Source of the DNA: Candidatus Latescibacterota bacterium
GTDB taxonomy: Bacteria; Latescibacterota; CBDEFO01
DNA length: 64,000 bases
Direction of reading: 5' to 3'
Assembly: GCA_965237525.1 (NCBI GenBank)
Contig: CBDEFO010000007.1
Location: forward strand, 448,001-512,000
Positions 16,303 through 62,635 of this stretch are shown here, piece after piece; the stretch's first letter is position 1; each line of letters starts with the position of its first letter. The notes below the pieces were generated by a model. It ran no database searches and was not told where the DNA came from. It saw only the letters and a list, made by a program, of their open reading frames with translations. Position numbers and translations under genes: made by a program.

Positions 16303-16327
16303 GTCCCCGAATGAATCTATCGGGGAC
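16303..16327. repeat. Short palindromic repeat (PIDSIG element)
   Basis: GTCCCCGAATGAATCTATCGGGGAC; a degenerate second copy lies at about 16379-16402. Confidence 0.8.
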
Positions 16328-16420
16328 AGGGGCACCGCGTCCCATCCCAGCTTGGGTCATTGCGAGTCACAGATTGAACCCCCAATAAATTCAATTGGTG
16401 GTTGGGGGCAGGTAGAGCCA

Positions 16421-16606
16421 CTACTCAAAGGGGGCATATTTGCATCTCTTGAAGTAGCTCAAGACACTGCTTCTGGGTAGGAGGAACTGTTTCCCCGGTT
16501 TGTGGCTGCGACCAATCCAGACTCTATAAACATTGTGCACGTGCCTTTCCAAGCACCTTAAGAACTGGGCTTCCTCTTTGACTGTAACGAGGTCTTAAAC
16601 ATTCAT
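16421..16606 (-). pseudogene. Excisionase-like HTH (HTH_17) pseudogene
   Basis: GGGAGG RBS; MNV*DLVTVKEEAQFLRCLERHVHN..(shift)..KPGKQFLLPRSSVLSY. Confidence 0.55.
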
Positions 16607-17033
16607 TTTTTCCTCCCTTGAGAAAACGTTCCCTGGCTATTACGTTTTTTTGTCCAGGGAGACTGAAGAGATTGAAGGGTTTTCTATGAACTTTTCCAGA
16701 AAAAAGAAAAAATGTTTTTGAAAAAGTTACTGTCTAAGGGTTCAAACCCTTCAGTCCTTCACTATTCTCTCTATGTTTTTGAAGCCGGAAACCACGATAG
16801 TAAACGCTACCGCCGTTCCTCTATCCCAGCCCGCGAAGCCCGGCTCATCAGGTGGATATTGGAATAAAGGGCCCACATCTGGAGAAGCCAATTGGCCGGT
16901 CGCGGCAGGCTGACAACTCGGATCTTAACTCGCTGGAAGGAGATGGAACATGAGAAAACGCAGCATAGTTGCCTATACGGTCCTAGCCGTCGCATTAACA
17001 GCTCTTGATGTCAATGGAGAGGGGTAAGCTAAC

Positions 17034-19571
17034 ATGCAGGATAATTCAGGTGCACCCATGGAGTGGATGAAACTGGATCGAGACAAGGGCTACGTAGTAT
17101 TCAATTACGGTACGCTTAAGAACCTGCCGCCTTCGCACGTACCCACTCCGGATGACGTTGCGAAGGAGGTTTCATGCGCGTTAGCCAGGGATGAGTACGA
17201 GTCTATTCAGTTCGGCGTGCACGCGCTGTCGGACGACATCAAAGATATACAGGTGAAGGTGGAATCAGACCTGCAAGTGACCATTTATCATCGGATCAGC
17301 CCGCGTGTTAAAGAAAAACTGGCATCCGAACCAGCCGAATTGGATGAGATTGCGCGGCGGACACCAAGTCAGATACATCTGCAGCGAGGGAACGTGTTTG
17401 AAGAGCTTCCGACAGGTCAGAGCGTCAACTTCTGGCTTACGTTCAGGGCGGATGCCGAGACGACAGAGGGTCTGCACCGGGGGAAGGTCCGGATAGAAGC
17501 TGTGGGCAGGCGGGGGACTGTGCTGGATCTCGAGGTGAAGGTGCGGCCGTTCCAGCTTCAGCGCCCCAGAGTGCCGTTTGGCGTGTACTTTCGAGAAGAC
17601 ATGCTTCCGAAACGTTTTGGGGGCTTGGCGACGCCGAAGGAATCGGTACTGGCCATGTACCGGGACATGGCGGAGCACGGCCACAATTCCAGTTGGTTCT
17701 ACCCGACCGGAAGCTTTCGCGACTTGCCGCCCAGGAACGGCCATGCGCTTGATAAGCTGATCCCGCTGGCCCAGCAGGCCGGCCTCCTTGACCCGGAAGT
17801 GCCCAGCTTTATCTGCGGCGGAATTCCCGGGGGCCTCAATGATGAGCAACTGAAGGCGGCGGCTGCCTGGTTGGAAGCCGAGCGAAGGCAACGGGGATGG
17901 CCTGAGTTGATTGTATTTGGCACGGACGAGCCGAGTTACCCGCGGGACTATGATGCTGTCAGCAGAGAGTTGAGGAATCTGCGCGGTTTTCCCGTGCGTG
18001 TGGCCGTGGATCTGTCCGGAACGTCGGCATACGGGTATGGCGGCGATCTTTGCGACATCCAGAACGTGATGGATGGAATGATCTCGCCTGAGATGCTGGA
18101 CGAGGCGAGACGCATAGGAACGGAAATCTGGACATATTCGTTTCGCATATGGCGAGAGGATTTCCATCCTTTCCGCCAGCGCTACTTTGCGGGCCTCTAC
18201 ACCTGGACATACCAGCTCGGGGGCAATTGGGTCTGGGCGTATCACCACGGCCCTCACCGGCATGTCTGGTTTGCGCCTGAGAGTCACGAGCCGATGCCCG
18301 TAACTGCCTGGGAGGCCCGGCGGGAAGGGATTGATGACTACCGATACCTGCAGATGGTCGAGGACTGCGTTGCGGCCAATCCAGACGAGACACTGGCGAT
18401 TGAAGCGTCAGCGTGGTTGCAGGCCCTGAGGGTCCGTCTTTCGGCCACCGTTCCCAACGAAGTGGAGGTCGGCAAGCCTCTGGAGCTTGATGAATACGAC
18501 CAGATTCGAGCCAGGGCGGCCGACTATATCCAGAGGCTGGGTCCTGTTTCGAACGAGGCTGTAGCTCGTCCGCCGATATCGCACGCCAAGGATGAGGCAG
18601 CATCTTACCGGGGTAAGTCGGTGAGACAGTGTATCGCCGGCCTGGCCAGTTCGGATGTGTCAGAACGTCGCGCTGCTGCCTGGGCACTCTTTGAGCTAGG
18701 ACCGAAAGCGGCGCAGGCCGCAGAGCCGCTGGCCCGGTTGCTTGATGATCCCGAGGTGCGAATACCCGCCCTGCACGCACTTGAGCACATCGGTCCGGAG
18801 GCATTTCGGGTAGTGCCCGAGATAGTACGGCTACTGAATCATCCCGATTTCTACGTTCGTGTGGGTGCCGTCTTGGCTCTGGGTGAGATCGGGTGCCCGT
18901 TGAATAAACGCGACCGCAGCGGGCGCAGATCGCCTTCGGAATGGGTCGCGATCGTCGCCGAACCGTTGATGGTCACCTACCGAGATGATGATGCATCGCT
19001 GTCATCCCAGGCCGCGGGAATGCTCTCCGTCATGGAGAATCTAGCCAAGCCCGTTCTGGCGGAGGCGATCACAATGCTCGATGACCCTTCTCACAGGCGT
19101 CAAAGCGCAGCAATCGGCCTCATCACTGGACTGGGTCCGGATGCCGCAGCAGCAGTGCCAAAGCTTATCGAAATGCACGAGAACAAATCTGAGGACATCA
19201 GGTACATTAACACGCTGGCTGCTATCGGTCCGGCTGCCAAATCGGCCATTCCGGTTCTGGAAGAATACGCTGCAAAGGAGGACTCCGGTCCTAACCGGGC
19301 AGAGTCATACTATGCGCTTTTCTGTATCCGGAATGAGCTTTCCGACCTCCGGAAAATGGTCGAATTGCTAAAGGACGCGGATGAGGACCTCGAGACGAAG
19401 AAGCGGGTTGTAAAGCTGCTCAATGAACTGGGAGCGAAGGCCGCACCTGTTGCGGATGAGATCCGCCAGATGGTCGAGTCGGGGAAGTTTTCCGATTGGG
19501 AAGAGGACCTGGAGTCTTTCCTTGACAAAGTGAAAAGGGGAGAGGTGCCGGGTGTTTCTTTCAGGTGGTAG
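17034..19571 (+). CDS. G2: GH123/DUF4091-like plus HEAT protein; its signal peptide (ATG 16950) is cut off by an in-frame TAA at 17025
   Basis: FGTDEPSYP, WEARREGIDDYRYLQM, HEAT repeats; GGG TAA GCT here versus GGG GAA GCC in G1. Confidence 0.7.
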   Translation: MQDNSGAPMEWMKLDRDKGYVVFNYGTLKNLPPSHVPTPDDVAKEVSCALARDEYESIQFGVHALSDDIKDIQVKVESDLQVTIYHRISPRVKEKLASEPAELDEIARRTPSQIHLQRGNVFEELPTGQSVNFWLTFRADAETTEGLHRGKVRIEAVGRRGTVLDLEVKVRPFQLQRPRVPFGVYFREDMLPKRFGGLATPKESVLAMYRDMAEHGHNSSWFYPTGSFRDLPPRNGHALDKLIPLAQQAGLLDPEVPSFICGGIPGGLNDEQLKAAAAWLEAERRQRGWPELIVFGTDEPSYPRDYDAVSRELRNLRGFPVRVAVDLSGTSAYGYGGDLCDIQNVMDGMISPEMLDEARRIGTEIWTYSFRIWREDFHPFRQRYFAGLYTWTYQLGGNWVWAYHHGPHRHVWFAPESHEPMPVTAWEARREGIDDYRYLQMVEDCVAANPDETLAIEASAWLQALRVRLSATVPNEVEVGKPLELDEYDQIRARAADYIQRLGPVSNEAVARPPISHAKDEAASYRGKSVRQCIAGLASSDVSERRAAAWALFELGPKAAQAAEPLARLLDDPEVRIPALHALEHIGPEAFRVVPEIVRLLNHPDFYVRVGAVLALGEIGCPLNKRDRSGRRSPSEWVAIVAEPLMVTYRDDDASLSSQAAGMLSVMENLAKPVLAEAITMLDDPSHRRQSAAIGLITGLGPDAAAAVPKLIEMHENKSEDIRYINTLAAIGPAAKSAIPVLEEYAAKEDSGPNRAESYYALFCIRNELSDLRKMVELLKDADEDLETKKRVVKLLNELGAKAAPVADEIRQMVESGKFSDWEEDLESFLDKVKRGEVPGVSFRW

Positions 19572-20197
19572 TCCTGATGTCACTTTGGAATTGCTGGCCG
19601 AATCAGACGGGACGGTTCTATTTGATCGAATTGCCGTCAACTGCCCCGTCAAGATAGGCAATGGCTTGCATAAAAAACCTCTATCAGTTCCTGTGCGGTT
19701 GGTCAGTTGTTTCCATGTCATTGGAGGCGAACAAAGAGATCAGGGCCAATAGCATTCGGCGTGCTCATTGCTGCCCGGCGTTCAGGGTCGAATTTTGATT
19801 GTGCCGGCATAGATGCTGGTTATGGGCTTGGTGGCGTGGGCGATCCTGGCGCCGTTTGTCGCCTTGGCGGAGGCCGGCGAGGTCAAAGTGACCGTACCCA
19901 GACAACCGAATCTGGAGGTAATTGATCTCTTCACCAACAAGGTAGTGGCTCGCCTCGACGCCGGACCTTCGACGTCAAGCTTAGACGGAACTTCCAGGGG
20001 AGGCTCTACCACCTGCGGCTGGCAGGTAACTGATAGCTCTTGTTTTGAAGGTGAACTCATGTCCCGGCCTAGCAAACCGGATCATCAGGTGGATATTGGA
20101 ATAAAGGGGAAATAAACGGCCCATATCTGGGAAAGCGAGTTGTCCGGTCGCAGCGTGCGGACAACTCGGATCTTAACTCGCTGGAAGGAGATGCAAC
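19572..20197 (+). repeat. Array spacer module (dead gene end plus conserved leader); other copies at 25757-26195 and 28740-29362, partial copies at 2671-2730+4033-4296 and 16845-16949
   Basis: Shared blocks such as GAGGTCAAAGTGACCGTACC, CAGGTGGATATTGGAATAAAGGG and CGGATCTTAACTCGCTGGA. Confidence 0.9.
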
Positions 20198-22801
20198 ATG
20201 AGAAAACGCAGCATAGTTGCCTATACATTGCTGGCCGTTGGATTAACGGCTCTCAATGCCTGTGGGCCCATGGAGTGGATGAAACTGGATCGAGACAAGG
20301 GTTACGTTGTCTTTAAGTACAGCACGCTTAAGAACCTGCCGCCTTCGCACGTGCCCACGCCGGGCGACGTTGCCGAGAAGGTTTCATGCTCGTTAGCCGG
20401 GGATGAGTACGAGCCGGTTCAGATTGGTGTTCACGCGCTGGCAGGTGGCTTGACCAACATCCGGGTCACGGTGATATCTGACCTCAAGGTGACGGTCTAT
20501 CACCGCATCGATCCAGGCATCAAGCAACAAGTGGCCTCAGAACCCGGCGCGACGGTGCTAATGCGGGTGCCAAGCGAAGTGTATTTGCAGCGAGGAGAGG
20601 TTGTTGGCGAACTTGCTAAAGGCGAATCCATCAATTTTTGGCTGCTGTTCCGTGCTGATGCTGAAACTTCTCCCGGCGTGCATCAGGGTAAGATCCGCAT
20701 TAAGCCGGACGGGCGGGCAGCGACGGAGTTGGACCTGGCGGTGCGCGTCAGGCCTTTTCAACTGGCGGCACCGCGAGCAGTATTTGGCATGTGGTTTCGG
20801 GAGGATATGTTACCTGAGCGATTTGGATCCTGGGAGATAGAGGATCAGGATGCTCTGGCGATTTACCGGGATATGGCGGCGCACGGCCAGAACTCGGTCA
20901 CATTATATCATGCGGGACACTACGCCCAGTTGCCGCCACGAGGCAGCCGGATGATGGACAAGTCCCTTGCACTGGCCGTCGAGGCGGGGCTTATTCGCCC
21001 GGAAATTCCTGTTGTAGCCGTGCAAGCCGGAATCACCGGCCCGGCGTTTTCCCAAGCGCAGACGGAAGCGGCGGTGGCGTGGCTGGAGACGGAGCGGCGC
21101 AAGCGCGGCTGGCCGGAAATCATAATATTCGGCCGGGATGAAGGGCTTTATCCAGCGCCTGGGCTGAGAGAAACCTACGCTCCTCTGCGCCCGTTGCCCA
21201 TTCGCCTTATGACGGACACGGGTCACATCTCGACGCCGTACGCGTATGGTGATTTTCACGACGTGTTGAGCTTAGCCGATGGTATAGGCCCACCCGAGGT
21301 GCAGGCCGAGGCCAGCCGGATGGGCGCAGAAGTCTGGACCTATTCCTATCGCGTATGGAGGGAGAACTACAGCCCGCTTTGTGAGCGATACTATGCGGGG
21401 CTGTACCCGTGGGCACACAGGATCGGCGGCAATATGGTCTGGGTATACTCGGGCACCGGGGTTCACAGTCACGTCTGGTGGAAACCAGACAGCAACGAGC
21501 CGATGCCCATTACGGGTTGGGAGGGCCGCCGCGAAGGCGTTGACGACTACCGCTACCTTCAGATGGTCGAGGATCTTGTGCAGGCGAAGACGCCCGCCCC
21601 GTTAGCCATCGAGGCGGGGGTATGGCTGGAGGCGCTGAGGGCACGCCTCGCGCGCACGGCCATCAAAACGTACGATGTGGAGGCCGGCAAGCCCCTGGAT
21701 ATCGAGGAATATGACGCGATTCGAGCCACGGCGGCCGATTACATTGAGAAGCTCGGCCCGGTGGCGGACCGAGAAGAGCCACCCGTAGTCAGGGGTCTGA
21801 AAGACGAGGCTGCCGCCTTCCGCGGCAAATCGGTGGAACAGTGTGTCGCGGGACTGGGTGGTTCTGATGTCTGGCAGCGCCGGGCGGCGGCGTGGGCCTT
21901 GGTTGAACTGGGTCCCCAGGCCGCTCAAGCCACACCGGCGCTTGTCCGATTGCTCGATGATCCGGAAGTTCGCTTCCCCGCCTTGCGCGCACTTGAGGCG
22001 ATCGGCCCCGAGGCGTATCCGGCGTCGTCGAAACTAACCTCGCTTCTGTCACATCCCGATGCTTTCGTGCGCCTGGGCGCGACTTTTGCCTTGGCCGGCA
22101 TCGCTGGCCCACGGAGCTGGGATGTCGCTGTGAGCGGATATGCACCCGAGGATGTGTCGCCGTATGCTCATATGGTCGTGGCGCCGTTGCGGCAAGCGCT
22201 GCGTGATTCGTATTTGGACATCGCGCGGGTTGCTGCGTACGGGCTATCCCGTTGCGGCGAGGTCGCTGCACCGGCACTTCCCGACGCCATGAGGCTGGTC
22301 GCGGGCAAACCCACCGACGCGTCCACCGCCGCGATGCGGGTACTGGCCGGGATGGGACCGGCAGCCGCGGCTGCCGTCCCCCTTCTGATCAAATCTTACG
22401 CGGCCGCCGAAGGAAAAGATCGCGCCATCACCTGGACGCTGGCAGCCATCGGCCCGGCTGCGTCCGACGCCGTTACGGTCCTGGAGCAGTACCGCACGCC
22501 GGAAAACCCGCACCTGGCTGACACCTGCTACGCCCTGTTCTGCATTCGCGGCGAGGAATCAGACCTTAAAACAATGGCCGGGCAGCTGGGTGACAAGAGC
22601 CGGCCGGGGGGTTCCTCAGAATGGCAGGACGTCATCAGATTCCTCAATGCCCTCGGCGCCCGAGCTGCACCCGTCGTCCCCCTGGTGCTAGAGCGATTAC
22701 GGCTCCTGGACTCTGAACCTGATCTGAAGCGCCAACTCGAGTCGATACTTCTCCAAAGAGTCAAAAAAGGTGAAAGTCCCCTCAGATTGCTGCCGCGCTG
22801 A
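20198..22801 (+). CDS. G3: GH123/DUF4091-like plus HEAT protein with a lipoprotein-like signal (LNAC)
   Basis: MRKRSIVAYTLLAVGLTALNAC; FGRDEGLYP; WEGRREGVDDYRYLQM; HEAT repeats. Confidence 0.7.
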   Translation: MRKRSIVAYTLLAVGLTALNACGPMEWMKLDRDKGYVVFKYSTLKNLPPSHVPTPGDVAEKVSCSLAGDEYEPVQIGVHALAGGLTNIRVTVISDLKVTVYHRIDPGIKQQVASEPGATVLMRVPSEVYLQRGEVVGELAKGESINFWLLFRADAETSPGVHQGKIRIKPDGRAATELDLAVRVRPFQLAAPRAVFGMWFREDMLPERFGSWEIEDQDALAIYRDMAAHGQNSVTLYHAGHYAQLPPRGSRMMDKSLALAVEAGLIRPEIPVVAVQAGITGPAFSQAQTEAAVAWLETERRKRGWPEIIIFGRDEGLYPAPGLRETYAPLRPLPIRLMTDTGHISTPYAYGDFHDVLSLADGIGPPEVQAEASRMGAEVWTYSYRVWRENYSPLCERYYAGLYPWAHRIGGNMVWVYSGTGVHSHVWWKPDSNEPMPITGWEGRREGVDDYRYLQMVEDLVQAKTPAPLAIEAGVWLEALRARLARTAIKTYDVEAGKPLDIEEYDAIRATAADYIEKLGPVADREEPPVVRGLKDEAAAFRGKSVEQCVAGLGGSDVWQRRAAAWALVELGPQAAQATPALVRLLDDPEVRFPALRALEAIGPEAYPASSKLTSLLSHPDAFVRLGATFALAGIAGPRSWDVAVSGYAPEDVSPYAHMVVAPLRQALRDSYLDIARVAAYGLSRCGEVAAPALPDAMRLVAGKPTDASTAAMRVLAGMGPAAAAAVPLLIKSYAAAEGKDRAITWTLAAIGPAASDAVTVLEQYRTPENPHLADTCYALFCIRGEESDLKTMAGQLGDKSRPGGSSEWQDVIRFLNALGARAAPVVPLVLERLRLLDSEPDLKRQLESILLQRVKKGESPLRLLPR

Positions 22802-22899
22802 AGAAGGGCTCGTCGCCGCGGTTGCTCATCTGGAATCAGAGGGAGATAATACTTATATACAGGCGGGACTGCTTGTTCAATTATTTCCGCGTTGAAAAC

Positions 22900-22928
22900 T
22901 TGACCGGGCTTTCCGATAATGCTAAAAT
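22900..22928 (+). promoter_or_regulatory. Sigma70-type promoter upstream of G4
   Basis: TTGACC-17 nt-TAAAAT with extended -10 TG. Confidence 0.55.
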
Positions 22929-23146
22929 TCAGAATACTGGAACAAGACAAAGTCTCAGAAAAACATGTCCGACCCTGGCTGAAAAAACTAGCTTCGTGTC
23001 ATTTCACCGGCCGCAAAAGAGTTACCTAATTATTGAGCCTTAACAAAAGCGACCTTTTTTTATTGACTCAAACCGACGGCAAGGGCAAAACAGTCCTTCA
23101 TGCGAGGACAATCCGGAGTAACGCCGAGCGAAAGGAGAGAGGCAAG

Positions 23147-25756
23147 ATGAGAATGTATAGTCTTATGGCAACAGTATTGTTGATGGGACGCAGTCTGGGA
23201 GCAGGGACGGGATACGCCGAGAACGGTGAAGGCGGGCCGGGGACAAACTGGACGGCAGCCGAAAAGCTGAAGGGGTACGTGGTCTTTGAGTACAGTACGC
23301 TGGAGAATCTTCCGCCCGCTCACGTACCGACTAGGGAGGCGATCGTGGACACGGTCTCATGCGCTTTAGCCAGGGATGAGTACGAGTCTATTCAGTTCGG
23401 CGTGCACGCGCTGGCCGATAGCTTGACGAACATCCGGGTCACGGTAGTATCTGACCTCGAGGTGACGGTCTATCACCGCATCGATCCAGGCATCAAGCAA
23501 CAACTGGCGTCAGAACCAGCCGAATTGGATGAGATTGCGCGGTGGGTGCCGAGCCAGATACATCTGCAGCGAGGGGACGTGTATGAAAAACTTCCGGCAG
23601 GCCAGAGCGTCAACTTCTGGCTGACATTCCGGGCGGATGGTGAGACGCCAGAGGGTCTGCACCTGGGGAATATCCGAATAGAGGCTGCGGGCAGGCGGGG
23701 GACTGTGCTGGGTCTCGAGGTGAAGGTGCGGCCGTTCCAGCTTCAGCGCCCCAGAGTGCCTTTTGGCGTGTACTTTCGAGAAGACATGCTGCCGAAACGT
23801 TTTGGGGGCCTGGCGACACCGAAGGAATCGGTACTGGCGATGTACCGGGACATGGCGGAGCACGGCCACAATTCCAGTTGGTTCTACCCGTTGGGAAGCT
23901 TTAGCGACTTGCCGCCCAGGAACAACTATGCGCTTGACAAGCTGATCCCGCTGGCCCAGAAGGCCGGCCTCCTTGACCCGGAAGTGCCCAGCTTGATCGC
24001 AGGCGGAATTCCCGGGGGCCTCAATGATGAGGAACTGAAGGCGGCGGCTGCCTGGTTGGAAGCAGAGCGCACGCAACGGGGATGGCCTGAGTTGATTGTA
24101 TTTGGCACGGACGAGCCGAGTTACCCGCGGGACTATGATGCTGTCAGCAGAGAGTTGAGGAATCTGCGCGGTTTTCCCATGCGGGTGGTCGTGGATCTGT
24201 CTGGAACGTCGGCATACGGGTATGGCGGCGATCTTTGCGACATCCAGAACGTGATGGATGGAATGATCTCGCCTGAGATGCTGGACGAGGCGAGACGTGT
24301 GGGAACAGAGATCTGGACGTATTCGTACCGCATATGGCGCGAGCATTTCTATCCTTTCAGCCAGCGCTACTTTGCGGGGCTCTACACCTGGACATACCAG
24401 CTCGGGGGCAATTGGGTCTGGGCGTATCACCACGGGCATCACCGGCATGTCTGGTTTACGCCTGAGAGTCACGAGCCGATGCCCGTAACTGCCTGGGAGG
24501 CCCGGCGGGAAGGGATTGATGACTACCGATACCTGCAGATGGTCGAGGACTGCGTTGCGGCCAATCCAGACGAGACACTGGCGATTGAAGCGTCAGCGTG
24601 GTTGCAGGCCCTGAGGGTCCGTCTTTCGGCCACCGTTCCCAACGAAGTGGAGGTCGGCAAGCCTCTGGAGCTTGATGAATACGACCAGATTCGAGCCAGG
24701 GCGGCCGACTATATCCAGAGGCTGGGTCCTGTTTCGAACGAGGCTGTAGCTCGTCCGCCGATATCGCACGCCAAGGATGAGGCAGCATCTTACCGGGGTA
24801 AGTCGGTGAGACAGTGTATCGCCGGCCTGGCCAGTTCGGATGTGTCAGAACGTCGCGCTGCTGCCTGGGCCCTCTTTGAGCTAGGACCGAAAGCGGCGCA
24901 GGCCGCAGAGCCGCTGGCCCGGTTGCTTGATGATCCCGAGGTGCGAATACCCGCCCTGCACGCACTTGAGCACATCGGTCCGGAGGCATTTCGGGTAGTG
25001 CCCGAGATAGTACGGCTACTGAATCATCCCGATTTCTACGTTCGTGTGGGTGCCGTCTTGGCTCTGGGTGAGATCGGGTGCCCGTTGGATAAACGCGACC
25101 GCAGCGGGCGCAGATCGCCTTCGGAATGGGCCGCGATCGTCGCCGAACCGTTGATGGTCGCCTACCGGGATGATAATGCATCGCTGTCATACCTGGCGGC
25201 GGGAATGCTCTCCGTCATAGGTGGGTTTGCCAGGCCCGCTCTGCCGGAGGCGATCACAATGCTCGATGACCCTTCTCACACGCGTCAAAGCGCAGCAATC
25301 GGCCTCATCACTGGACTGGGTCCGGATGCCGCCGCAACAGTGCCAAAGCTCATCGAAATGCACAAGAACAAATCTGAGGACATCAGGTACATTAACGCGC
25401 TGGCTGCTATCGGCCCGGCTGCCAAATCGGCCATTCCGGCTCTGGAAGAATATGCTGCAAAAGAGGACTCCGGTCCTAATCGGGCAGACTCATACTATGC
25501 GCTCTTCTGCATCCGGAATGAGATTTCCGACCTGCGGAAAATGGTCGAGTTGCTAAAGGACGCGAATGAGAACACCGATACGAAGAAACACGTTGTAAAA
25601 CTCCTCAACCAACTGGGAGCGAAGGCCGCACCTGTTGGGGATGAGGTCAATCAGATGCTCAAGTCGGGAGAGTTTTCCGACTGGGAAGAGGACCTGCAGT
25701 CTCTCCTTGAGAAAGTTGAGACGGGAGAGGTGCCGGGTGTTTCTTTCAGGTGGTAG
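23147..25756 (+). CDS. G4: secreted GH123/DUF4091-like plus HEAT protein
   Basis: AAGGAG RBS; distinct signal MRMYSLMATVLLMGRSLGAGTGYA; body nearly identical to G2. Confidence 0.7.
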   Translation: MRMYSLMATVLLMGRSLGAGTGYAENGEGGPGTNWTAAEKLKGYVVFEYSTLENLPPAHVPTREAIVDTVSCALARDEYESIQFGVHALADSLTNIRVTVVSDLEVTVYHRIDPGIKQQLASEPAELDEIARWVPSQIHLQRGDVYEKLPAGQSVNFWLTFRADGETPEGLHLGNIRIEAAGRRGTVLGLEVKVRPFQLQRPRVPFGVYFREDMLPKRFGGLATPKESVLAMYRDMAEHGHNSSWFYPLGSFSDLPPRNNYALDKLIPLAQKAGLLDPEVPSLIAGGIPGGLNDEELKAAAAWLEAERTQRGWPELIVFGTDEPSYPRDYDAVSRELRNLRGFPMRVVVDLSGTSAYGYGGDLCDIQNVMDGMISPEMLDEARRVGTEIWTYSYRIWREHFYPFSQRYFAGLYTWTYQLGGNWVWAYHHGHHRHVWFTPESHEPMPVTAWEARREGIDDYRYLQMVEDCVAANPDETLAIEASAWLQALRVRLSATVPNEVEVGKPLELDEYDQIRARAADYIQRLGPVSNEAVARPPISHAKDEAASYRGKSVRQCIAGLASSDVSERRAAAWALFELGPKAAQAAEPLARLLDDPEVRIPALHALEHIGPEAFRVVPEIVRLLNHPDFYVRVGAVLALGEIGCPLDKRDRSGRRSPSEWAAIVAEPLMVAYRDDNASLSYLAAGMLSVIGGFARPALPEAITMLDDPSHTRQSAAIGLITGLGPDAAATVPKLIEMHKNKSEDIRYINALAAIGPAAKSAIPALEEYAAKEDSGPNRADSYYALFCIRNEISDLRKMVELLKDANENTDTKKHVVKLLNQLGAKAAPVGDEVNQMLKSGEFSDWEEDLQSLLEKVETGEVPGVSFRW

Positions 25757-26195
25757 CCCTGATATCACTTTAGAATCGCTGGCCGAATCGGACGGGACGG
25801 TCTATTTGACCGAATTGCCGTCAACTGCCCCGTCAAGATAGGCAATGGCTTGCAGAAAAAACACCTATCAGCTCCTGTGCAGTTGGTCAGTTGTGTCCAT
25901 GTCATTGGAGAACGAATAAAAGGATCAGGGCCAATAGCGTTCGGCGTGCCCATTGCTGCCCGGCGTTCATGCTTGAATTTTGATTGTGCCGGAATGGCTT
26001 GGGGGCGTGGGCGATCCTGGCGCCGTTTGTCGCTTTGGCGGAGGCCGGCGAGGTCAAAGTGACCGTACCACGACAACCGAATCTGGAGGTAATTAATCTC
26101 TTCACCAACAAGGTAGTGGCCCGCTTGGAGGCCAGACGACGGGCCTTCGACGTCTGGATTAACGGCTCTCAATGTCAACGGAGGGGGAAGCTAAC
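25757..26195 (+). repeat. Array spacer module with an internal deletion removing the leader and signal-peptide start
   Basis: TTCGACGTC is joined directly to TGGATTAACGGCTCTCAATG at about 26155. Confidence 0.85.
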
Positions 26196-28739
26196 ATGAA
26201 GGATAATTCAGGTGCGCCCATGGAGTGGATGAAACTGGATCGAGACAAGGGTTACGTTGTCTTTAATTACAGCACGCTGAAGAACCTGCCGCCTTCGCAC
26301 GTGCCCACGCCGGGCGACGTTGCCAAGCAGGTTTCATGCTCGTTAGCCGGTGATGAGTACGAGCCGGTTCAGATTGGTGTTCACGCGCTGGCCGATGGCT
26401 TGACCAACATCCGGGTCAAGGTGGCATCGGATCTCGAGGTGACGGTCTATCGCCGCATTGATCCAGGCCTCAGGAAACAGCTGGCTGCAGAACCCGAGTC
26501 GGTGGTGCAGGAGTTGGTGCCAAGCGAGGTGTATCTGCAGCAAGGCGAGGTTGTCGGAGAACTTGCTAAAGGCCAATCCATCAATTTTTGGCTGCTGTTC
26601 CGTGCTGATCCTGACACACCTCCCGGGGTGCATCAGGGTAAGATCCGCATTGAGCCGGACGATCGGGCAGCGACCGAGCTGGACCTGCGGGTGCGTGTCA
26701 GGCCGTTTCAACTGGCAGAGCCGCGAGCCGTATTTGCCGTGTACTTTCGTGAGGACATGCTGCCCAAGCGCTTTGGGACCTGGGACGTGGAGGATCAGAT
26801 GGCGCTGGCGATTTACCGTGATATGGCTGCGCACGGGCAGAACTCGGTTACATTCTATGGTGGGGGAGACTACCGGACCCAGTTGCCGCCGCTAAACAGC
26901 CGGATGGTGGAGAAGTCCCTCGCACTAGCCCAAGAGGCGGGGCTCACTCGCCCGCGAATTCCCGTTGTAACCGTGGCCAGCATGGTCGGTGATGACATTT
27001 CCCGAACGCAGCAGAAAGCGGCGGTGGCCTGGCTAAGGAAGGAGGGGCGCCGGCTCGGCTGGCCGGAGATTGTCTTATTCGGCCGGGATGAAGGGATGTA
27101 TCCAGCGCTCGGGATGAGGGAAACCTATGCTCCCCTGCGCCCGTTGCCAATTCGCCTGTCGACGGACATGAGTCACATCTCGCCGGCGTACGCCTATGGA
27201 GATTTTCACGACGTGTGGACCATGCACGACGGCTTGCTCACACCAGAGTTGCAGGCCGAGGCAAGACGGATGGGTGCAGAGGTCTGGAGCTACTCCTATC
27301 GCATATGGAGGGAGAGCTTCAGCCCGGTTACTCAGCGCTACTACGTCGGACTGCACACCTGGGCGCACCGGATCGAAGGCAATTGGCTGTGGGGATACAC
27401 TCATGTGCGTCACAGTCAGGTCTGGTGGAAACCGGATAGCCACGAGCCGATGCCCCAAACGGGTTGGGAAGGCCGCCGCGAAGGTGTTGACGACTATCGC
27501 TACCTGCAGATGGTCGAGGACCTGGTCGAGGCGAAGACACCCGACCCGACAGCCATCGAGGCGGGGGCATGGCTGGAGGCGCTGAGGGCACGCTTCACGC
27601 TCACGACCATCGATCCGCACGAGGTGGTGGCAGGCAAGCCCCTGGACGTCCAGGAATATGACGCGATTCGAGCCACGGCGGCCGATTACATTGAAAAGCT
27701 CGGCCCGATAGTGGACCGTAAAGAGCGGCGGACCGGTAGGCGTCTGAAGGACGAGGCTGCGGCCTACCGCGGCAAGTCGGTGAAACAGTGTGTCGCGGGG
27801 CTTAATGGTTCTGATGTTTCTAAACGCCGGGCGGCGGCGTGGGCGTTGTATGAACTGGGCCCCCAGGCCGCTCAAGCGACACCGACACTTATCCCGTTGC
27901 TCGATGATCCGGAAGTGCGCTTTCCCGCCCTGCACGCACTCGAGGCGATCGGCCCCGATGCGTATCCGGCGGCGCCGAACATAGCCTCGCTTCTGTCACA
28001 TCCTGATGCTTTCGTGCGCCTGGGCGCGACTTTCGCCTTGGCCGGCATCGCCCGCCCACGAAACTGGGATGAAGATGTGAACGGATACGCACCCGAGGAT
28101 GTGTCGCCTTATGCTCAGACGGTTGTACCGCCGTTGCGGCAAGCGCTACGTGATGTGCATCAGGATGTCGTGTGGATTGCTGCGTACGGGCTGTCCCGTT
28201 GCGGAGAGGCCGGCGCGCCGACACTGCGCGACGCAATGAAGATGGCCCAGGAAACAAGCGACAACCGCGCGGCCGGGCTGCGGGTGCTGTGTGGGATGGG
28301 TCCGGCAGCCGCGGCAGCCGTCCCCCTTCTAGTCGAATCTTACACGGCCGCCAAAGGTGAAGATCGCCCCGTCACCTGGACGCTGGCAGCCATTGGCCCG
28401 GCTGCCAAATCGGCCATTCCGGCTCTGGAAAAATATGCTGCAAAGGAGGAATCCGGTCCTAACCGGGCAGACTCATACTATGCGCTTTTCTGCATCCGGA
28501 ATGAGGTTTCCGACCTCCGGAAAATGGTCGAGTTGCTAAAGGACGCGGATGAGGATCCCGAGATGAAGAAGCGGGTTGTAAAGCTCCTCAATGAACTGGG
28601 AGCGAAGGCCGCACCTGTTGCGGATGAGGTCCGCCAGATGGTCGAGTCGGGGAAGTTTTCCGATTGGGAAGAGGACCTGGAGTCTTTCCTGGAGAAAGTG
28701 AAAAGGGGAGAGGTGTCGGGTGTTTCTTTCAGGTGGTAG
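26196..28739 (+). CDS. G5: chimeric GH123/DUF4091-like plus HEAT protein without a signal peptide
   Basis: GGAGGGGG RBS; G6-like catalytic part (FGRDEGMYP) with a G2-type C-terminus (..GVSFRW). Confidence 0.7.
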   Translation: MKDNSGAPMEWMKLDRDKGYVVFNYSTLKNLPPSHVPTPGDVAKQVSCSLAGDEYEPVQIGVHALADGLTNIRVKVASDLEVTVYRRIDPGLRKQLAAEPESVVQELVPSEVYLQQGEVVGELAKGQSINFWLLFRADPDTPPGVHQGKIRIEPDDRAATELDLRVRVRPFQLAEPRAVFAVYFREDMLPKRFGTWDVEDQMALAIYRDMAAHGQNSVTFYGGGDYRTQLPPLNSRMVEKSLALAQEAGLTRPRIPVVTVASMVGDDISRTQQKAAVAWLRKEGRRLGWPEIVLFGRDEGMYPALGMRETYAPLRPLPIRLSTDMSHISPAYAYGDFHDVWTMHDGLLTPELQAEARRMGAEVWSYSYRIWRESFSPVTQRYYVGLHTWAHRIEGNWLWGYTHVRHSQVWWKPDSHEPMPQTGWEGRREGVDDYRYLQMVEDLVEAKTPDPTAIEAGAWLEALRARFTLTTIDPHEVVAGKPLDVQEYDAIRATAADYIEKLGPIVDRKERRTGRRLKDEAAAYRGKSVKQCVAGLNGSDVSKRRAAAWALYELGPQAAQATPTLIPLLDDPEVRFPALHALEAIGPDAYPAAPNIASLLSHPDAFVRLGATFALAGIARPRNWDEDVNGYAPEDVSPYAQTVVPPLRQALRDVHQDVVWIAAYGLSRCGEAGAPTLRDAMKMAQETSDNRAAGLRVLCGMGPAAAAAVPLLVESYTAAKGEDRPVTWTLAAIGPAAKSAIPALEKYAAKEESGPNRADSYYALFCIRNEVSDLRKMVELLKDADEDPEMKKRVVKLLNELGAKAAPVADEVRQMVESGKFSDWEEDLESFLEKVKRGEVSGVSFRW

Positions 28740-51719: not shown

Positions 51720-52210
51720 CTTTCATTCTCCTCTCCTGTGGGAATTGACTTTTGAAGATTCACTAGTTCGATAGCGCTCTTGCACTGGGTCATCCAGTTC
51801 TCCACTTGCCAAAGAATCCGACCTATGGCGATGACCCCCTACTGTCCCTACGCCCAACGAGGTCTTGTCCCCCAATCAATTGAAGAGGATTAGGTGCCGA
51901 TGTACTGGTCGATGACCTTCTGAGGCTCCGGTAGGGCCGCTCTCTCCCAAACCCACTGTGCCGTCGTCCGCGTGCACGACGTACACCGTGCGTGCGTGGT
52001 ACCATGGTAGTGATTGAGCTGGTAGACGATCCAGTCCTCGTATTCAAGCCAGATTTCGTGAACCTGGATCTTGGTTGCCTTCGCAGTATTTCCTCTATAT
52101 AGCCTCTGTTGCCGTTTTTCCCCGGAAAGCTCTTCAATACTTTTTGGGTGCCCCAGACCGGCACTGCGTGCTGGTCTAGATAAACTTCAGGTAGCTCCAC
52201 TCACTTCGTG

Positions 52211-52243
52211 GCAAGCCCCGGATTGGATCTATCGGGGGCTTGC
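52211..52243. repeat. Short palindromic repeat, intergenic
   Basis: GCAAGCCCCGGATTGGATCTATCGGGGGCTTGC. Confidence 0.75.
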
Positions 52244-52254
52244 TATCTCCCCAG

Positions 52255-53310
52255 CTAAGTGGCTAGGGCATCAGCAGCCGATCTTTCCAAACGGACGGAC
52301 GCCACTCGCCTCCCATCCAAATTGAATTCCTCGCCAGTTCCAGCTTCGCGAAATCCTAGGGACTCGAATAATGCTCGCTTATTTTCATCCTCGACTGAGA
52401 GAGTTGCCGAACATAGAGGTACACCGCGGGAAGCACCCCAAGACATGGCCGCCTCGATCAGGTCTTTCCAGGCGCCTATATAATTTTGATGAGTGAAAGC
52501 GTCCACCTGGCATTGAGTCCCAATAGATTCAATTGAGGGTTGACCCTCGAGGGATTCAATCGGGGATTGATCAAGTTGTGCTGTTGCTAGTCCGACCAGA
52601 TTGCCTCGATCTGTGCGAGCACCAAACCATTCACCCCGGCCTTCTCGGACGAGTGCCTCATACCGGGGATAGAGCCCCATGCATGAATGTTGCACAGCGT
52701 ATCGCGTTGAAAAGATACCCACGTTGGCGTCCAACACCTGCCAGTCGTGAGAAGATATAAGCAGTGGGATCATAGGAATACGCTCAGAGGCCGAGGCTAC
52801 CGCAGTTGTTGTTGAGCCATCTTTCCTGAAGCAGTCCACAAGAAAAGTCTCCGGTGAGTCCCCGCTTGCAATAAAGGCCATTACGTTGGCTCCTGCCAAT
52901 TTCCGCCATCCAAGACGATTGTACACTCGAGCAGCTGCAGGGTTGCCAGTCCCAAGAAAAAGTGCCTGGCCTCCCTGTGTTCGAAAATCGTCAAGCGCAC
53001 GCTCGCAGAGTTTACTGGCTAGCCCCAGACGACGAAACTCAGGAGCAGTCGCCACTTCCCCCAATCCTCCCAATTCCGGATTCGACTTGGAAATTGTCAA
53101 GTGGGAGCTGCTAGCTAATTTCTTCCCTTGGCGCACTAAGTATAGGATGTCCTGGTTTTGTGCACGTTCTGCAGCAGCGAGTACACTTCGCAGATCTTCA
53201 AAGGAAGTTTCGAAGATCACTTCCCAGAAATCGATCAACTCCTCTGTCAAATCATCGGGCAGAGGTGACTCAATTTCTAAGGAGTCCATCTGTTCATCTA
53301 ACTCATTCAT
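52255..53310 (-). CDS. GNAT family N-acetyltransferase (tandem domains)
   Basis: EVATAPEFRRLGLAS, NPAAARVYNRLGW, second LFESLGF. Confidence 0.88.
   Translation of the reverse strand: MNELDEQMDSLEIESPLPDDLTEELIDFWEVIFETSFEDLRSVLAAAERAQNQDILYLVRQGKKLASSSHLTISKSNPELGGLGEVATAPEFRRLGLASKLCERALDDFRTQGGQALFLGTGNPAAARVYNRLGWRKLAGANVMAFIASGDSPETFLVDCFRKDGSTTTAVASASERIPMIPLLISSHDWQVLDANVGIFSTRYAVQHSCMGLYPRYEALVREGRGEWFGARTDRGNLVGLATAQLDQSPIESLEGQPSIESIGTQCQVDAFTHQNYIGAWKDLIEAAMSWGASRGVPLCSATLSVEDENKRALFESLGFREAGTGEEFNLDGRRVASVRLERSAADALAT
52518..52566. repeat. Compound palindromic repeat in frame in the GNAT gene (SPIESLEGQPSIESIG)
   Basis: TCCCAATAGATTCAATTGAGGG..CCCTCGAGGGATTCAATCGGGGA. Confidence 0.7.
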
Positions 53311-53478
53311 TTTTCTTCCAAAATGACAAAGCGGAACCAACTGATCGAAAGGCCCGCCGTCGTAAAGTTCAGATGAGCTGTAACTTTATCGCCTTCCTCC
53401 TCATCTGGAAGCACAGATAGCAGGTGATACGGACTGTGAGATAAGATAACGCATGCGATTAGTCAATGTCAACGCTTA

Positions 53479-53520
53479 ATTCATCCCCGATAGAAGCAAC
53501 GGGGATGAATCTATTGGGGG
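53479..53520. repeat. Compound palindromic repeat, intergenic
   Basis: ATTCATCCCCGATAGAAGCAACGGGGATGAAT followed by CTATTGGGGG. Confidence 0.65.
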
Positions 53521-53595
53521 TCAACATAAAAGAGAAAGGGTTACACAGCGTCCACCCTGTTGTGGGGGATGACTCCTTAAATGACACACCAGTCA

Positions 53596-54646
53596 TCAGC
53601 TTTCAGGTGAAGTAGTATCTGATCCGGATTTGCCGCCCTTTTTCCCCAGTTGCACTTTCAACTCGTAGCATCTGTGAGCCAAGTCAACAAGTTCGGCAAA
53701 GCCCCACGTTCCTCGGTCTGTAAGGATACAAGATAAGTCCGAAGGAATCCCTTCCAGCCCCAGAAAGGCTCCACTGATAGCTCCAGCCATAGCGGCAGTT
53801 GTATCTACGTCTCCACCTACGGCGATTGCAGTGCAGACAGTCTCCCGATAGTCATTTGGTGTTCTCAGAAACGAATATAAACTCCACAGGACACTGCCCG
53901 TAACAACGGGGGATATCCCCTGCCACGCATCCGAATAGTCAGGCGAACCGGCTTTGGAAATTATAGTGGCCGCCTCGTGGGGAGGCAAGGGCATCCATTC
54001 CCTCAATTGCCCAATACCTGAGGCGACCGACTCTTCTATCGTCTCTGTCCACTCGACAAGCTGGGAGAGGAATTGATCTGCCTTAATTCTCTCGCTTTCA
54101 AGGGTTAACGCCACAGGACCGGCGATGGCGACCGAACCGGCTGAGCATCGTCTATCTTGATGAGTGATGCGGCTCTGATCGTGAGCCCTCCGAACAAGCT
54201 CTTTTGGGTCGTCGAAGAACAATAAGCCTACAGGGCCCGCCCGCATGGCACTGCCGTTTCCGGCAGATGGAGGAGGAGTTCCCGCTTCCTCCCACGATGT
54301 GCCCCCTGCCAGACGCCCTGCAGCTTCCTCAGTTGCCCGCCCCCGACCGACAATCCGTCCCTCTGCAAAGATAGCAGCGATCCCGACCGGCGTAATCGCT
54401 GGGATCAAACTCTTTGCAAGCCAGGTAGCTCTGTAAGAGCTCGCGGGCAAGCTGAGAGTCATCCGTATATTGACCGAATGAGAAAGGGTTGCGAGCCCGC
54501 TCTCCTCCGCGCCCTGCCTTTAAAATCTCCCTCACGTACTGCTGGCAAATTTCCGGGGGACAGCCCTCAACCGTGAAACCTAACGCATCGCCCAAACACT
54601 GCCCAATCAAACATCCGCTAAATTGCTCCTTACGGGGCGCGATCAT
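53596..54646 (-). pseudogene. ADP-ribosylglycohydrolase family, +1 frameshift at about 54383
   Basis: GDALG and YTDDSQL in one frame; GNGSAMR, ITH and GGDVDTTAAMAG in another. Confidence 0.85.
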
Positions 54647-54674
54647 CTTGTTCTTTAGTGTTGATATTTAGTTC

Positions 54675-56390
54675 CTACCTATCAGGGCCATCCATTGCGG
54701 CGTTGATCTGCTCAATCTTCTTCTCAACCATTTGCAACCCCATAGTTCTCGCACCAATGGCTAGATAAATGGCACGAGCCTGCTTTAGCAGTTCCAAAGC
54801 CTCCTGCTTCTTTCCCTGAATAGCATCATAGATGATGCCGATGTTGCTAAGGCCATTGGCCTGACCTAAAGGATTGCCAATCTTTTCGTGAATCTCAAGT
54901 GCTGACTTGTAAGACTTCAGCGCATCATCCAGATTCCCCTGATTACCCTGCTCAGCATAGACGTTGCCGATGTTAGCGAGGTCATTGGCCTGACCTAAAG
55001 GATTGCCAATCTTTTCGTGAATGTCAAGTGCCGCCTTGTGAGACTTCAGTGCTTGCTGTAACTTCCCCTGATTCCTAAGGTAGACGTTGCCGATGTTGCC
55101 GAGGTCATTGGCCTGACCTAAAGGATTGTCAATCTCCTGGTGAATGTCAAGTGCCGCCTTGTAAAACTTCAGAGCCTCCTCCAGCTTACCCTGATTCCTA
55201 TAGACGATGCCAATGCTTCCAAGGGCATTAGCCTGACCTAAAGGATTGTCAATCTCCTGGTGAATTTCATGTGCTACCTCGTGAGACTTCAGTGCCTCCG
55301 CCAACTTGCCTTGCTCAGCATATACGTTGCCGATGTTGCCAAGGTCAATTGCCTGACCTTCAGGATTGTCAATCTGCTTGTCAATCTCAAGTGCTGCCTT
55401 ATGCGACTTCAGTGCCTCCTCCAACTTCCCCTGATTAAAGTAGACGTTGCCTGTGTTACCTAGGACATTGGCTCGGCCTAAAAGATTGTCAATCTCCTCG
55501 TGAATGTCAAGTGCTGCCTTATGCGACTTCAGTGCCTCCTCCAACTTCCCCTGATTAAAGTAGACGTTGCCTGTGTTACCTAGGACATTGGCTCGGCCTA
55601 AAAGATTGTCAATCTCCTCGTGAATGTCAAGTGCTGCCTTATGCGACTTCAGTGCCTCCTCCAACTTGCCCTGACTCCTATAGATGTTGCCGATGTTGTC
55701 GAAGGCATTAGCTTGGCCTAAAGGATTCCTAGTCTTTTCGAAAATCTTAAATGCCGCCTCGTAAGACTCCAATGCTTTATCCAAATTCCCCTGCCTAAAG
55801 TATACGATACCGATGTTGCCGAGAAATATTCCTTCAAACTCCCTATCTTGTTTCTTGCGAGCAATCTGAAGTCCAGACATGAAACCATCCTCAGCTTTCG
55901 GAAGGTCTGAGACATAAGAAAGCGAAATGCCAAGGTTTAGGTAAGCAGATATCGTTGGAAGCAGACCAATAGATTTCTGATAATTGCTGGCAGCATCTCG
56001 GTAGCGGTTCGATGCAAAATCACGTTCAGCGGCATTGAAGTAATCCTCCGCTTCGCTGACGACTTCAGCCGCTGCCTCTTCTAACTCGCTTTTGAATCCA
56101 GTCAGAGTTGCCTTCTGGGTAAGTCCTCCTTGAGGATCCTGAATTAACACAATCACAGGTTCCTTCTTACCTAAGGATTCTTTCCATGCGTTTGCTATAC
56201 GGGAAATTGCTAAGAAAACAATGGCGAAAATTAACAGAAGTAGTCGATTTCCCTCAAGCTCTGCAAAGATCGGATCAAGGATCGGAAATTTTTTCAGTTC
56301 GTCTGGGGTGAAGCTTGCCCCGAACAGTAGCCCAGAAACAACTGCCAGAAACTCAAATAGATGAGTTAACAGGATCAGAACACGCATCAT
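54675..56390 (-). CDS. Membrane-anchored TPR protein with 40-aa repeats
   Basis: Two N-terminal TM helices; about nine LGNIGNVY..QGKLEEALKSH..AL.I repeats. Confidence 0.9.
   Translation of the reverse strand: MMRVLILLTHLFEFLAVVSGLLFGASFTPDELKKFPILDPIFAELEGNRLLLLIFAIVFLAISRIANAWKESLGKKEPVIVLIQDPQGGLTQKATLTGFKSELEEAAAEVVSEAEDYFNAAERDFASNRYRDAASNYQKSIGLLPTISAYLNLGISLSYVSDLPKAEDGFMSGLQIARKKQDREFEGIFLGNIGIVYFRQGNLDKALESYEAAFKIFEKTRNPLGQANAFDNIGNIYRSQGKLEEALKSHKAALDIHEEIDNLLGRANVLGNTGNVYFNQGKLEEALKSHKAALDIHEEIDNLLGRANVLGNTGNVYFNQGKLEEALKSHKAALEIDKQIDNPEGQAIDLGNIGNVYAEQGKLAEALKSHEVAHEIHQEIDNPLGQANALGSIGIVYRNQGKLEEALKFYKAALDIHQEIDNPLGQANDLGNIGNVYLRNQGKLQQALKSHKAALDIHEKIGNPLGQANDLANIGNVYAEQGNQGNLDDALKSYKSALEIHEKIGNPLGQANGLSNIGIIYDAIQGKKQEALELLKQARAIYLAIGARTMGLQMVEKKIEQINAAMDGPDR
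55387..55667. repeat. Exact 120-bp tandem repeat (about 2.3 copies) in the TPR gene
   Basis: Lines 55441 and 55561 are identical; lines 55381, 55501 and 55621 are near-identical. Confidence 0.9.
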
Positions 56391-61256: not shown

Positions 61257-62177
61257 ATGACAATTGATGTCGGAAGAGAATTAAGGGAAAGGTGCAGAGG
61301 GGAGGTACGCAGGGATGAGATGCTTTCGAGTCATACGTCTTTGCGGATCGGGGGACCCGCGGACTTTATGCTCTATCCGGCTCGCGTGGAGGATATTGTG
61401 GGGGCCTTGACGCTTACAAGGAATGAAGGGGTTCGGGTTATGACCATAGGAGGTGGGACGAATCTGCTATTTGCAGAGAGCGGGTTTAGAGGTCTGATTA
61501 TTAACATGAGAAGATCTGTCTCCGATGTGTCCTTTGACGAATCCATAGCTAAAGCTGGAGCGGGAGGCAATCTGTCCCGATTTGCGGGAAAATGCGCTGA
61601 TGCAGGACTGGCAGGGCTGGAGTTTGCGTGGGATATTCCAGGGACTGTGGGAGGAGCTGTAAGGGGGAACGCCGGGGCGTTTGACAAGAGCATTTCTGAC
61701 AGGTTGATCGAGGTTGTGGGAATAGATATGAACTCTCTAGAGTCTACTGTGTTGAAGAAGGAGCACATAAGGTTTGAATACAGGAGCGCAGATTTTCCAA
61801 TAGACATAGTGATAACAGGGGCAACGTTCAAGTTGGATAGAGGGAACACTGAGCAGATAAGGGAGAGGATGGATGAGATGCTGGCGTACAGGAAGAGATC
61901 TCAGCCACTTTCGGACAGGAGCGCGGGGTGTATATTCAAGAACTATGGCGAAAATTCCGCAGGGATGTTAATAGATAAGGCGGGCTGTAAAGGCTTAAGA
62001 TTGGGCGATGCCTGTGTGTCGGACGTACACGGAAATTTTATTATCAACCAGCGCAGTGCAAGCTCTGATAACGTATTAAAGCTGATAGACATAGTAAGAG
62101 AGAAGGTAATGGACCTTTGTGGCGTCAGGTTGGAACTGGAAATACGGATTGTGGATGAGGAACGTATGGCTCCATAA
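61257..62177 (+). CDS. murB: UDP-N-acetylenolpyruvoylglucosamine reductase
   Basis: RIGGPA, GGGTNLL, IPGTVGGAV.GNAGA, SAGCIFKN, HGNFIIN and LELEI motifs. Confidence 0.96.
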   Translation: MTIDVGRELRERCRGEVRRDEMLSSHTSLRIGGPADFMLYPARVEDIVGALTLTRNEGVRVMTIGGGTNLLFAESGFRGLIINMRRSVSDVSFDESIAKAGAGGNLSRFAGKCADAGLAGLEFAWDIPGTVGGAVRGNAGAFDKSISDRLIEVVGIDMNSLESTVLKKEHIRFEYRSADFPIDIVITGATFKLDRGNTEQIRERMDEMLAYRKRSQPLSDRSAGCIFKNYGENSAGMLIDKAGCKGLRLGDACVSDVHGNFIINQRSASSDNVLKLIDIVREKVMDLCGVRLELEIRIVDEERMAP

Positions 62178-62207
62178 TCTGTAGTCGAAGACCAAAAGGA
62201 GGATTCT

Positions 62208-62600
62208 ATGGGGACGTATCTTGAACACACGGCTATTCCTGCAAAGGATACGAAGGCTCTGACCGAGTGGTACTGTGACCGTTTCGGGTTGAGAGTTGTG
62301 TACGAGGGAGAGGGAGAAAACCCCATCTATTTCGTCAAAGGTGAAAAGGGAAGTGCGGTTGAGATCATTCCTGCGGGCCAAGGGGATTACAGAATCCCCG
62401 ATTCGGTCGATAAGAATGTCAGACATTTGTCTTTCTGGGTGGACGATTTTGACCGGGAGATTGAGAGATTGAAGTCCGAAGGGATTGAGATGGAGGATGC
62501 GTTAACGCTTTTTGATGGAGATGTAAAGGTCTCCTTTGGAAACGACCCTGAGGGTAACAGGCTTCAGATCGTATGGAGAAGAACGCCTCTTCTGGGATAG
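62208..62600 (+). CDS. VOC/glyoxalase family protein
   Basis: LEHTAI, RHLSFWVDD and DPEGNRLQI motifs. Confidence 0.88.
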   Translation: MGTYLEHTAIPAKDTKALTEWYCDRFGLRVVYEGEGENPIYFVKGEKGSAVEIIPAGQGDYRIPDSVDKNVRHLSFWVDDFDREIERLKSEGIEMEDALTLFDGDVKVSFGNDPEGNRLQIVWRRTPLLG

Positions 62601-62635
62601 TAGCCCCCGATTGAGTCTATCGGGGATCGGGGCTA
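62601..62635. repeat. Short palindromic repeat, intergenic
   Basis: TAGCCCCCGATTGAGTCTATCGGGGATCGGGGCTA. Confidence 0.75.

Follow-up and report, generated by a model that had tools for sequence, protein, structure and literature searches.

The closest known system to the repeat studied here is that of the SDR elements of Nostoc. SDR1 to SDR8 of the Nostocaceae, which Elhai et al. (2008, Genome Res 18:1484) are said to have described, are reportedly mobile, 21 to 27 nt long and of compensated structure; their reported hosts are minitransposons, heptamer tandem repeats and other SDR copies, and movement via an RNA copy and a reverse transcriptase is said to have been proposed for them. Our element shares with the SDRs its size (23 nt), its dispersal, its compensated stem and its three kinds of host, namely copies of itself, heptamer repeats and small transposons. 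Unlike the SDRs, it is non-cyanobacterial and occurs with identical letters across phyla, and, as far as the SDRs are known from the abstract and citing passages, it also differs in inserting mostly imprecisely, with 3 or 4 nt lost or gained at the target. Excerpts of later papers state that SDR5 inserts precisely within HIP1 (PMC4390886; PMC5861425) and that SDRs are not found outside the Nostocaceae (PMC5861425). The SDRs may follow a similar junction rule, and the supplements of the 2008 paper could hold junction data.

RPE-1 is much longer than the 23-nt element. Tn916-type coupling sequences are donor bases at the end of an insertion, and our element likewise has apparent donor bases at one end; unlike Tn916, it has no integrase, measures 23 nt instead of kilobases and has a second class of insertions in which target bases are lost. 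The coupling bases are described as few and as confined to a single end of the insertion (PMC12229494). GTAG REPs and REPINs with RAYT resemble the element in size, hairpin form, copy numbers in the hundreds and a mostly intergenic location, and an excerpt states that GTAG REPs sometimes supply a TAG stop, as our hairpin does (PMC3733652). Unlike them, the element lacks the GTAG tag, occurs as singlets and not doublets, and has junctions that are not C|T, while the RAYT of the source genome is flanked by a separate GTAG family. CGTC REPs, for which no mobilizer is known, and Ssn-related motifs are described in PMC3733652 and PMC11893778; the element has no CGTC end and is a passenger inside such repeats. 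Unlike Ssn-related motifs, it does not flank the ssn gene, which NTS-like repeats do. MITEs are 70 to 300 bp long with 15- to 30-bp TIRs (PMC3733652), whereas our element has 23 nt, 8-bp arms and no constant target duplication (4-nt direct repeats flank 25 and 3-nt repeats 39 of 552 copies). The comparison with known small repeats also drew on parts of PMC3116915. Judged by their defining features, GTAG REPs, CGTC REPs, Ssn motifs and MITEs do not include the element, and a search of titles and abstracts, outside most subscription papers, gave no description of it or of its junction rule. What our work adds is a two-register junction rule, the capture of donor tails and a secondary origin of the inverted arms.

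The hairpin unit is 23 nt long, Y-CCCCGATAGATTCAATCGGGG-R. By a genome-wide count, the source genome (Latescibacterota, 4.58 Mb) contains 552 sites at up to 3 mismatches, 268 sites with exact 7-bp arms and 117 exact copies, and the window, i.e., the whole 64-kb stretch analyzed, contains 6 matches at up to 2 mismatches, compared to 0.34 expected. Among 41 genomes searched with 1 mismatch allowed, the source genome had 389 matches and its congener (G001) 382, two genomes (G009 and G024) had a single match each, and the remaining 37 had none. The first-pass annotation took the core to be 21 nt, a multiple of 3. However, the unit extends to 23 nt, because 80% of the copies have a complementary pair immediately beyond the ends of the 21-mer (T/A in 270 and C/G in 169 of 552) versus 47.5% by chance, while the second pair is complementary in 23.6%, below the 32.9% expected by chance; most gains measure +19 or +20. 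The hairpin folds into an 8-bp stem with a 7-nt loop (z about −3), and changes of both bases have turned its stem pair 5/17 into A-T in 20 copies, versus 1.7 expected, and into T-A in 9, versus 0.24 expected. Most copies (406/552) are intergenic, and 63 lie in the middle of an ORF by a rough ORF call; 111 are nested in GAGATTGC...GCAATGAC repeats of the CGTC REP/Ssn-motif type. The flanks are variable, with GTAG as the left 4-mer in 17 of 552 copies, and the 250 non-nested copies show a loose dyad, YYNR-[23]-YNRR (R at −1 in 209, Y at +1 in 209, Y at −3 in 168 and R at +3 in 182). A shorter sibling hairpin with a 3-nt loop has about 30 to 40 copies, and three events, judged by eye, give +15 for it (19 minus 4). 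At two loci (L204 and L211) we noticed a second 23-nt hairpin, which has TCCCCG...CGGGGA arms, a CTTG tail and another loop and lies inside an NTS-like repeat close to a copy of the element; it may represent a sister family with a +27 form. No Rfam family was found within the window.

At each of the eight sites listed in the first-pass annotation we found the motif, in some cases worn or nested; both orientations occur, and the cores lie at 16305, 16380, 48587, 50446, 52217, 52518 plus 52545, 53485 and 62605. The copies are not assembly artifacts, as contigs from other runs contain them (X2 over 44500 to 54825, X15 over 16224 to 16437). A T...A-type copy at 16304 to 16326 (minus strand) sits inside an AGTAGAC-heptamer/GTAGACAGGGG repeat and is absent from the congener. 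It had been read as a 28-nt insertion into AGTAGAC-CGGG-CACC with two empty sites elsewhere in the window, but the orthologous allele of the congener is AGTAGAAAGTAGACAGGGG, a net gain of +20, and the supposed empty sites at 45398 to 45415 and 50734 to 50751 (both minus strand) are not empty alleles of this copy; both belong to a GTAGAC...GGGCA host-repeat family with 83 matches. Contigs of runs X7, X13, X15 and X16 contained no outgroup allele of this copy. Nearby, at 16379 to 16401 (plus strand), lies a worn, stem-compensated CCCCAAT...ATTGG variant that the congener also has. A C...G-type copy (52216 to 52238) with GCAAG/CTTGC arms, which span 52211 to 52243 on the minus strand, lies within a GGCAGCAAGCCACGAAG-type host repeat and is present in the congener as well. 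At 53479 to 53520 (plus strand), a copy with ATTCAT/ATGAAT arms is nested in a remnant of opposite orientation, in a region missing in the congener and in run X7. The last copy, at 62604 to 62633 (minus strand) with an arm remnant of a nested host copy, lies within AGTAG/CTAGACAG repeats, and the congener sequence differs there. Beside 48440 to 48590 and 62600 to 62750, the congener has different, longer sequence (about 1.4 kb, and 341 versus 146 nt); genome-wide, alignment breakpoints were not enriched near copies (5/389 intergenic ends versus 3.6%). The window also encodes seven paralogous proteins of 845 to 993 aa that contain one HEAT-repeat patch, five of them in tandem (4297 to 6861, 17034 to 31957 and 35896 to 38877).

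The claim that the element is translated in frame in two genes of the window was borne out by alignment of homologues. The first gene (48599 to 50650, minus strand) encodes a 683-aa protein, P0001, with a 10-aa element-derived insert near residues 55 to 65: its segment has 40 aa versus 30 aa in 118 of 121 proteins, and the insert is missing from 119 others. The reading SPIDSIGD stems from a consensus copy at 50445 to 50467 (minus strand), next to arm remnants of older nested copies at 50478 to 50491 (minus strand; TCGGGGATCGGGGA on the plus strand) that are also in frame. The same ORF receives its last codons and its TAG stop (48599 to 48601) from the copy at 48586 to 48608 (minus strand; DPR*), as had been proposed; the sequence of the congener differs here, and its orthologue ends in ETGD with its own TGA. 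At least 282 homologues of this protein were found at an E value of 1e-20, and it matches no Pfam or NCBIfam family. The second gene (52255 to 53340, minus strand) encodes a GNAT acetyltransferase, P0002, in which an insert of 15 aa (21 aa in the congener) derives from two worn copies of the element at 52518 to 52566 (plus strand; SPIESLEGQPSIESIGT), for which the congener has a longer nested form. The segment is 38 aa long, whereas 114 of the 120 proteins aligned have 23 aa; of the other homologues 118 lack the insert, these 114 included. Moreover, RelA/SpoT-like genes (family read from sequence) at Deltaproteobacteria loci read through a copy in frame. The analogy drawn earlier with RPEs thus holds in that the element, like RPEs, tolerates in-frame insertion in genes.

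The element is real and mobile, and its presence or absence differs between the source genome and the congener, which supports the original reading as a very small mobile palindrome. We compared the source genome with 2.8 of the 4.54 Mb of the congener, whose flanks are about 96% identical. Among 192 unique sites of the source genome with an orthologue, 132 were shared, 42 were empty and 18 had another copy nearby; from the other side, 179 sites of the congener gave 134, 34 and 11, respectively. Hence, about a fifth of the unique sites are empty in either direction, although the individual events at unique sites are not polarized in a two-genome comparison without an outgroup, and the congener, a single-contig genome, holds 30 of 78 polymorphic copies of its own. 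We also surveyed indels across the whole alignment without seeding on the element (2,243 events in 2.09 Mb aligned), and 82 events of up to 60 nt were linked to it: 7 of +18, 21 of +19, 10 of +20, 4 of +21, 2 of +22 to +25, 3 of +26 and 14 of +27. Collapsing shared contexts left 70 events, with 20 of +19, 7 of +20, none of +23, 3 of +26 and 14 of +27; the independence of events is limited in that several of the +20 events lie in one repeat family. Because the +27 class comprises 8 non-coding and 7 coding cases, selection for reading frame alone is not the cause of its peak. Most indels of 14 to 45 nt that are not linked to the element are short tandem duplications.

These sizes correspond to two registers at the target. 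In the +19 and +20 classes the target loses 4 or 3 nt, the 23-mer replacing 4 target bases in +19 events, and in the +26 and +27 classes 3 to 4 extra nucleotides appear, which are duplicated or seemingly carried from the donor. The polarity of the loss follows from insertions of the element into itself: in 35 of 57 nested cases in the source genome, and 14 of 22 in the part of the congener compared, TAGA at one loop position is replaced, in both orientations, and since the uninterrupted allele corresponds to the consensus of the element, the events are gains accompanied by loss of target bases. An IS5/IS1182-like insertion sequence, represented in the window at 32322 to 33847 (minus strand) and used as a polarity control only, gives the same polarity, with 2 filled copies elsewhere (+19 and +20) versus 135 empty ones. 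NCGN is common among the 4-mers lost, 17 of 23 having C at position 2. Of 15 +27 events, 1 is an exact duplication, 10 have a 4-nt tail absent from the target and 4 are too diverged to be read; two of the three +26 events are 3-nt duplications. Eight of the 10 extra tails read CAGG, CCTG, CTTG or CAAG, and in 5 copies CAGGC follows one rare variant, which suggests a flanked chromosomal donor as the source; 3 of the 5 belong to a single cluster of paralogous genes. Pairs of rare variants share at least 4 flank bases in 23% of 47 pairs, compared to 2.9%. Tails on both sides were found in 0 of 250 copies (about 1 expected). A simple model of unrepaired overlap for the +19 class was ruled out, as arms truncated on one side (2/4 bases on one side and 4/4 on the other) are rare (12/388 copies).

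The first-pass annotation presented copy-specific inverted arms as the rule. Only the first flanking pair exceeds chance, and the TAG/CTA at 62601, taken as a stem extension, adds no pair. At least 3 extra pairs occur in 30 of 552 copies, compared to about 24 expected, and at least 5 in 19, compared to about 4. In 7 of the 16 alignments listed with long arms, the copy is common to both genomes and the arms are in one only; the arms of these pairs therefore postdate the insertion. Long arms were gained through several simultaneous stem-perfecting changes, and the 7 pairs are as quasipalindrome template switching would give (PMC7202029).

What moves the element? It is a non-coding, mobile 23-nt hairpin, and in our view the chances are about even that it is copied from a chromosomal copy by cut-and-join with junctions offset by about 4 nt. 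Cuts would fall at loose half-sites, as suggested by the flanking dyad. Trimming of the offset bases would cost the target 4 (or 3) nt and give +19 or +20, and keeping them would leave 4 (or 3) nt that are duplicated or derived from the donor flank, giving +27 or +26. Folding of the single strand presumably matters, because stem changes are compensated. Template switching may later give a few copies longer arms, and nested composites may spread when repeats convert one another. Our first guess for the cutting enzyme is a host replication or repair function common to both congeners, as no mobile nuclease tracks with the element. We rank this cut-and-join by host machinery ahead of template switching, a transient RAYT or Ssn enzyme, an RNA route and inverted duplication, in that order.

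Microhomology-guided template switching or short-patch conversion might do without a dedicated cut, the size peaks marking where short homologies lie. This process is visibly active at copies of the element, whose targets often resemble the hairpin ends or the half-site (TCGA to TC-[19]-GA in an IS copy, and the NCGN bias). A composite junction recurs in identical form at several orthologous repeat sites, in the source genome only, and 374 of 552 copies adjoin other repeats, compared to 22% of the intergenic background. The lack of a mobile enzyme that tracks with the element fits as well. Rare variants also tend to lie near each other, with 5 of 151 pairs less than 20 kb apart, a number reached in 2 of 300 shuffles, but this clustering rests on 5 pairs, 2 of which are in paralogous genes. 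Two sharp size peaks with nothing at +23, and the loss of TAGA upon self-insertion without homology to the element ends, argue against this reading, and we consider template switching as the whole explanation to be possible but rather unlikely.

More doubtful still is a hairpin-recognizing single-strand enzyme acting in trans, either a RAYT/HUH or an Ssn-type GIY-YIG protein, whose gene would turn over faster than the repeats. As noted previously, no mobilizing enzyme is visible in the window, but the source genome encodes two candidates. The first is an intact RAYT-like gene (C8:1476118-1476648, L363; NF047646 E value of 1.8e-17, below the family cut-off) that was found by tblastn and missed by the genome search with Pfam Y1_Tnp; the second is an Ssn-like 107-aa GIY-YIG gene (L144:1413-1765, on contig C4). 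Parts of the literature also report 4-nt guide and cleavage sites beside hairpins of 20 to 25 nt for HUH enzymes (PMC6006769). However, neither gene was found in the congener despite its own polymorphic copies, and among the 41 genomes searched, 17 and 14 others encode relatives of the two although their own count of the element is 0 or 1. The expectation that a RAYT would be flanked by the motif was not borne out: the gene adjoins GTAGGGGC-type REPs with a GTAG tag, one of which, downstream, has a copy of the element nested in it, and the Ssn-like gene lies between two NTS-like hairpins. The target junctions (A^T in 20, C^T in 5 and C^A in 1 of 66) differ from the C|T or C|A given for TnpA-REP (PMC8266576). 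Pfam Y1_Tnp had no match in the congener, no small GIY-YIG gene was found in the congener or in G041, G042 and G043, and none of the 15 Y1 loci of the latter three genomes has a close copy (one has a worn match). Two side observations concern these genes: the RAYT-like gene has a REP inside its coding region, as in subclass 2.4, and the Ssn-like gene is flanked on either side by stretches that resemble each other and measure about 400 nt.

Movement through an RNA copy and a reverse transcriptase, the route reportedly proposed for the Nostoc SDRs, would account for the compensated stem pairs, and the congener has two reverse transcriptase matches; we nonetheless hold it to be very improbable, as no such match was found in the source genome or G041, both orientations occur at one site, and the copies split evenly between strands (281 versus 271 across the contigs of the source genome). 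Least credible is the original proposal of inverted target duplications or of pre-existing hairpins as targets, for which the excess of copies with 5 or more extra pairs speaks and against which stand the second flanking pair below chance, the arms that differ between the genomes at shared copies and the absence of inverted duplications from the clean +19 and +27 events; of hairpin targeting there remains a weak signal, as empty sites fold slightly better than intergenic sequence (median −3.2 versus −2.4 kcal/mol, 50 sites), a difference due in part to several targets being older copies of the element.

Other candidates for a mobilizer were rejected. The IS5/IS1182-like element has 91 full copies in the source genome versus 2 in 2.8 Mb of the congener, uses a different target and has a consensus without the hairpin; its copy number reflects a recent burst. 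Genes for a four-helix-bundle protein (PF05635) and DUF559 do not track with the element. No recurrent neighbor was found among 111 small ORFs near metagenome copies, and, by eye, no recurrent small gene of the source genome is flanked on both sides by copies. In total, the IS5/IS1182-like element has about 140 to 155 copies in the source genome (91 full by BLAST), and its ends are embedded in YTAR-like sites. Other IS-like families there have 57, 17 and 10 near-identical copies, some with the hairpin as a passenger.

Beyond the two congeners, the exact 21-mer occurs at no fewer than 9 Deltaproteobacteria MAG loci, at least 2 Thermodesulfobacteriota loci and at least 1 contig labeled Nanoarchaeia (L176), where it lies inside an IS256-like reading frame and the label may be a binning error. 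Among the matches listed, 50 of 62 exact loci belong to the Latescibacterota chromosome and are excluded from all counts. G041, G042 and G043 have 19, 6 and 3 copies, metagenome matches comprise 70 distinct contexts with a GC content of 0.36 to 0.69, and viral contigs gave no match. Copies sit inside IS-like genes in several hosts, and IS elements are a possible vehicle between lineages. At Deltaproteobacteria-type and metagenome loci, comparison of paralogues suggests that the element takes the place of 9 or 14 nt in a host repeat. This argues against a 4-nt offset that holds everywhere; the offset may be lineage specific. We advance only tentatively, as a reading with less than even chances, that this is a selfish 23-nt hairpin without a gene of its own that uses core host machinery with a 4-nt offset in either direction and could hence work in several phyla.

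In summary, the element bears on the question of how repeats of 20 to 30 nt move, which is still posed by SDRs, CGTC REPs and RPEs. A genome pair at about 96% identity provides 70 readable events that, together with the fixed self-insertion site, constrain the chemistry (no +23, a loss of 4 or 3 nt or a gain of 4 or 3 nt, and capture of the donor flank) and supply a defined test substrate. If the hairpin is indeed moved by host machinery, the reaction would be one not described before. Repeats of this kind can acquire long, perfect arms secondarily, and the hairpin offers a route to new loops of 5 to 20 aa and new stop codons in enzymes.
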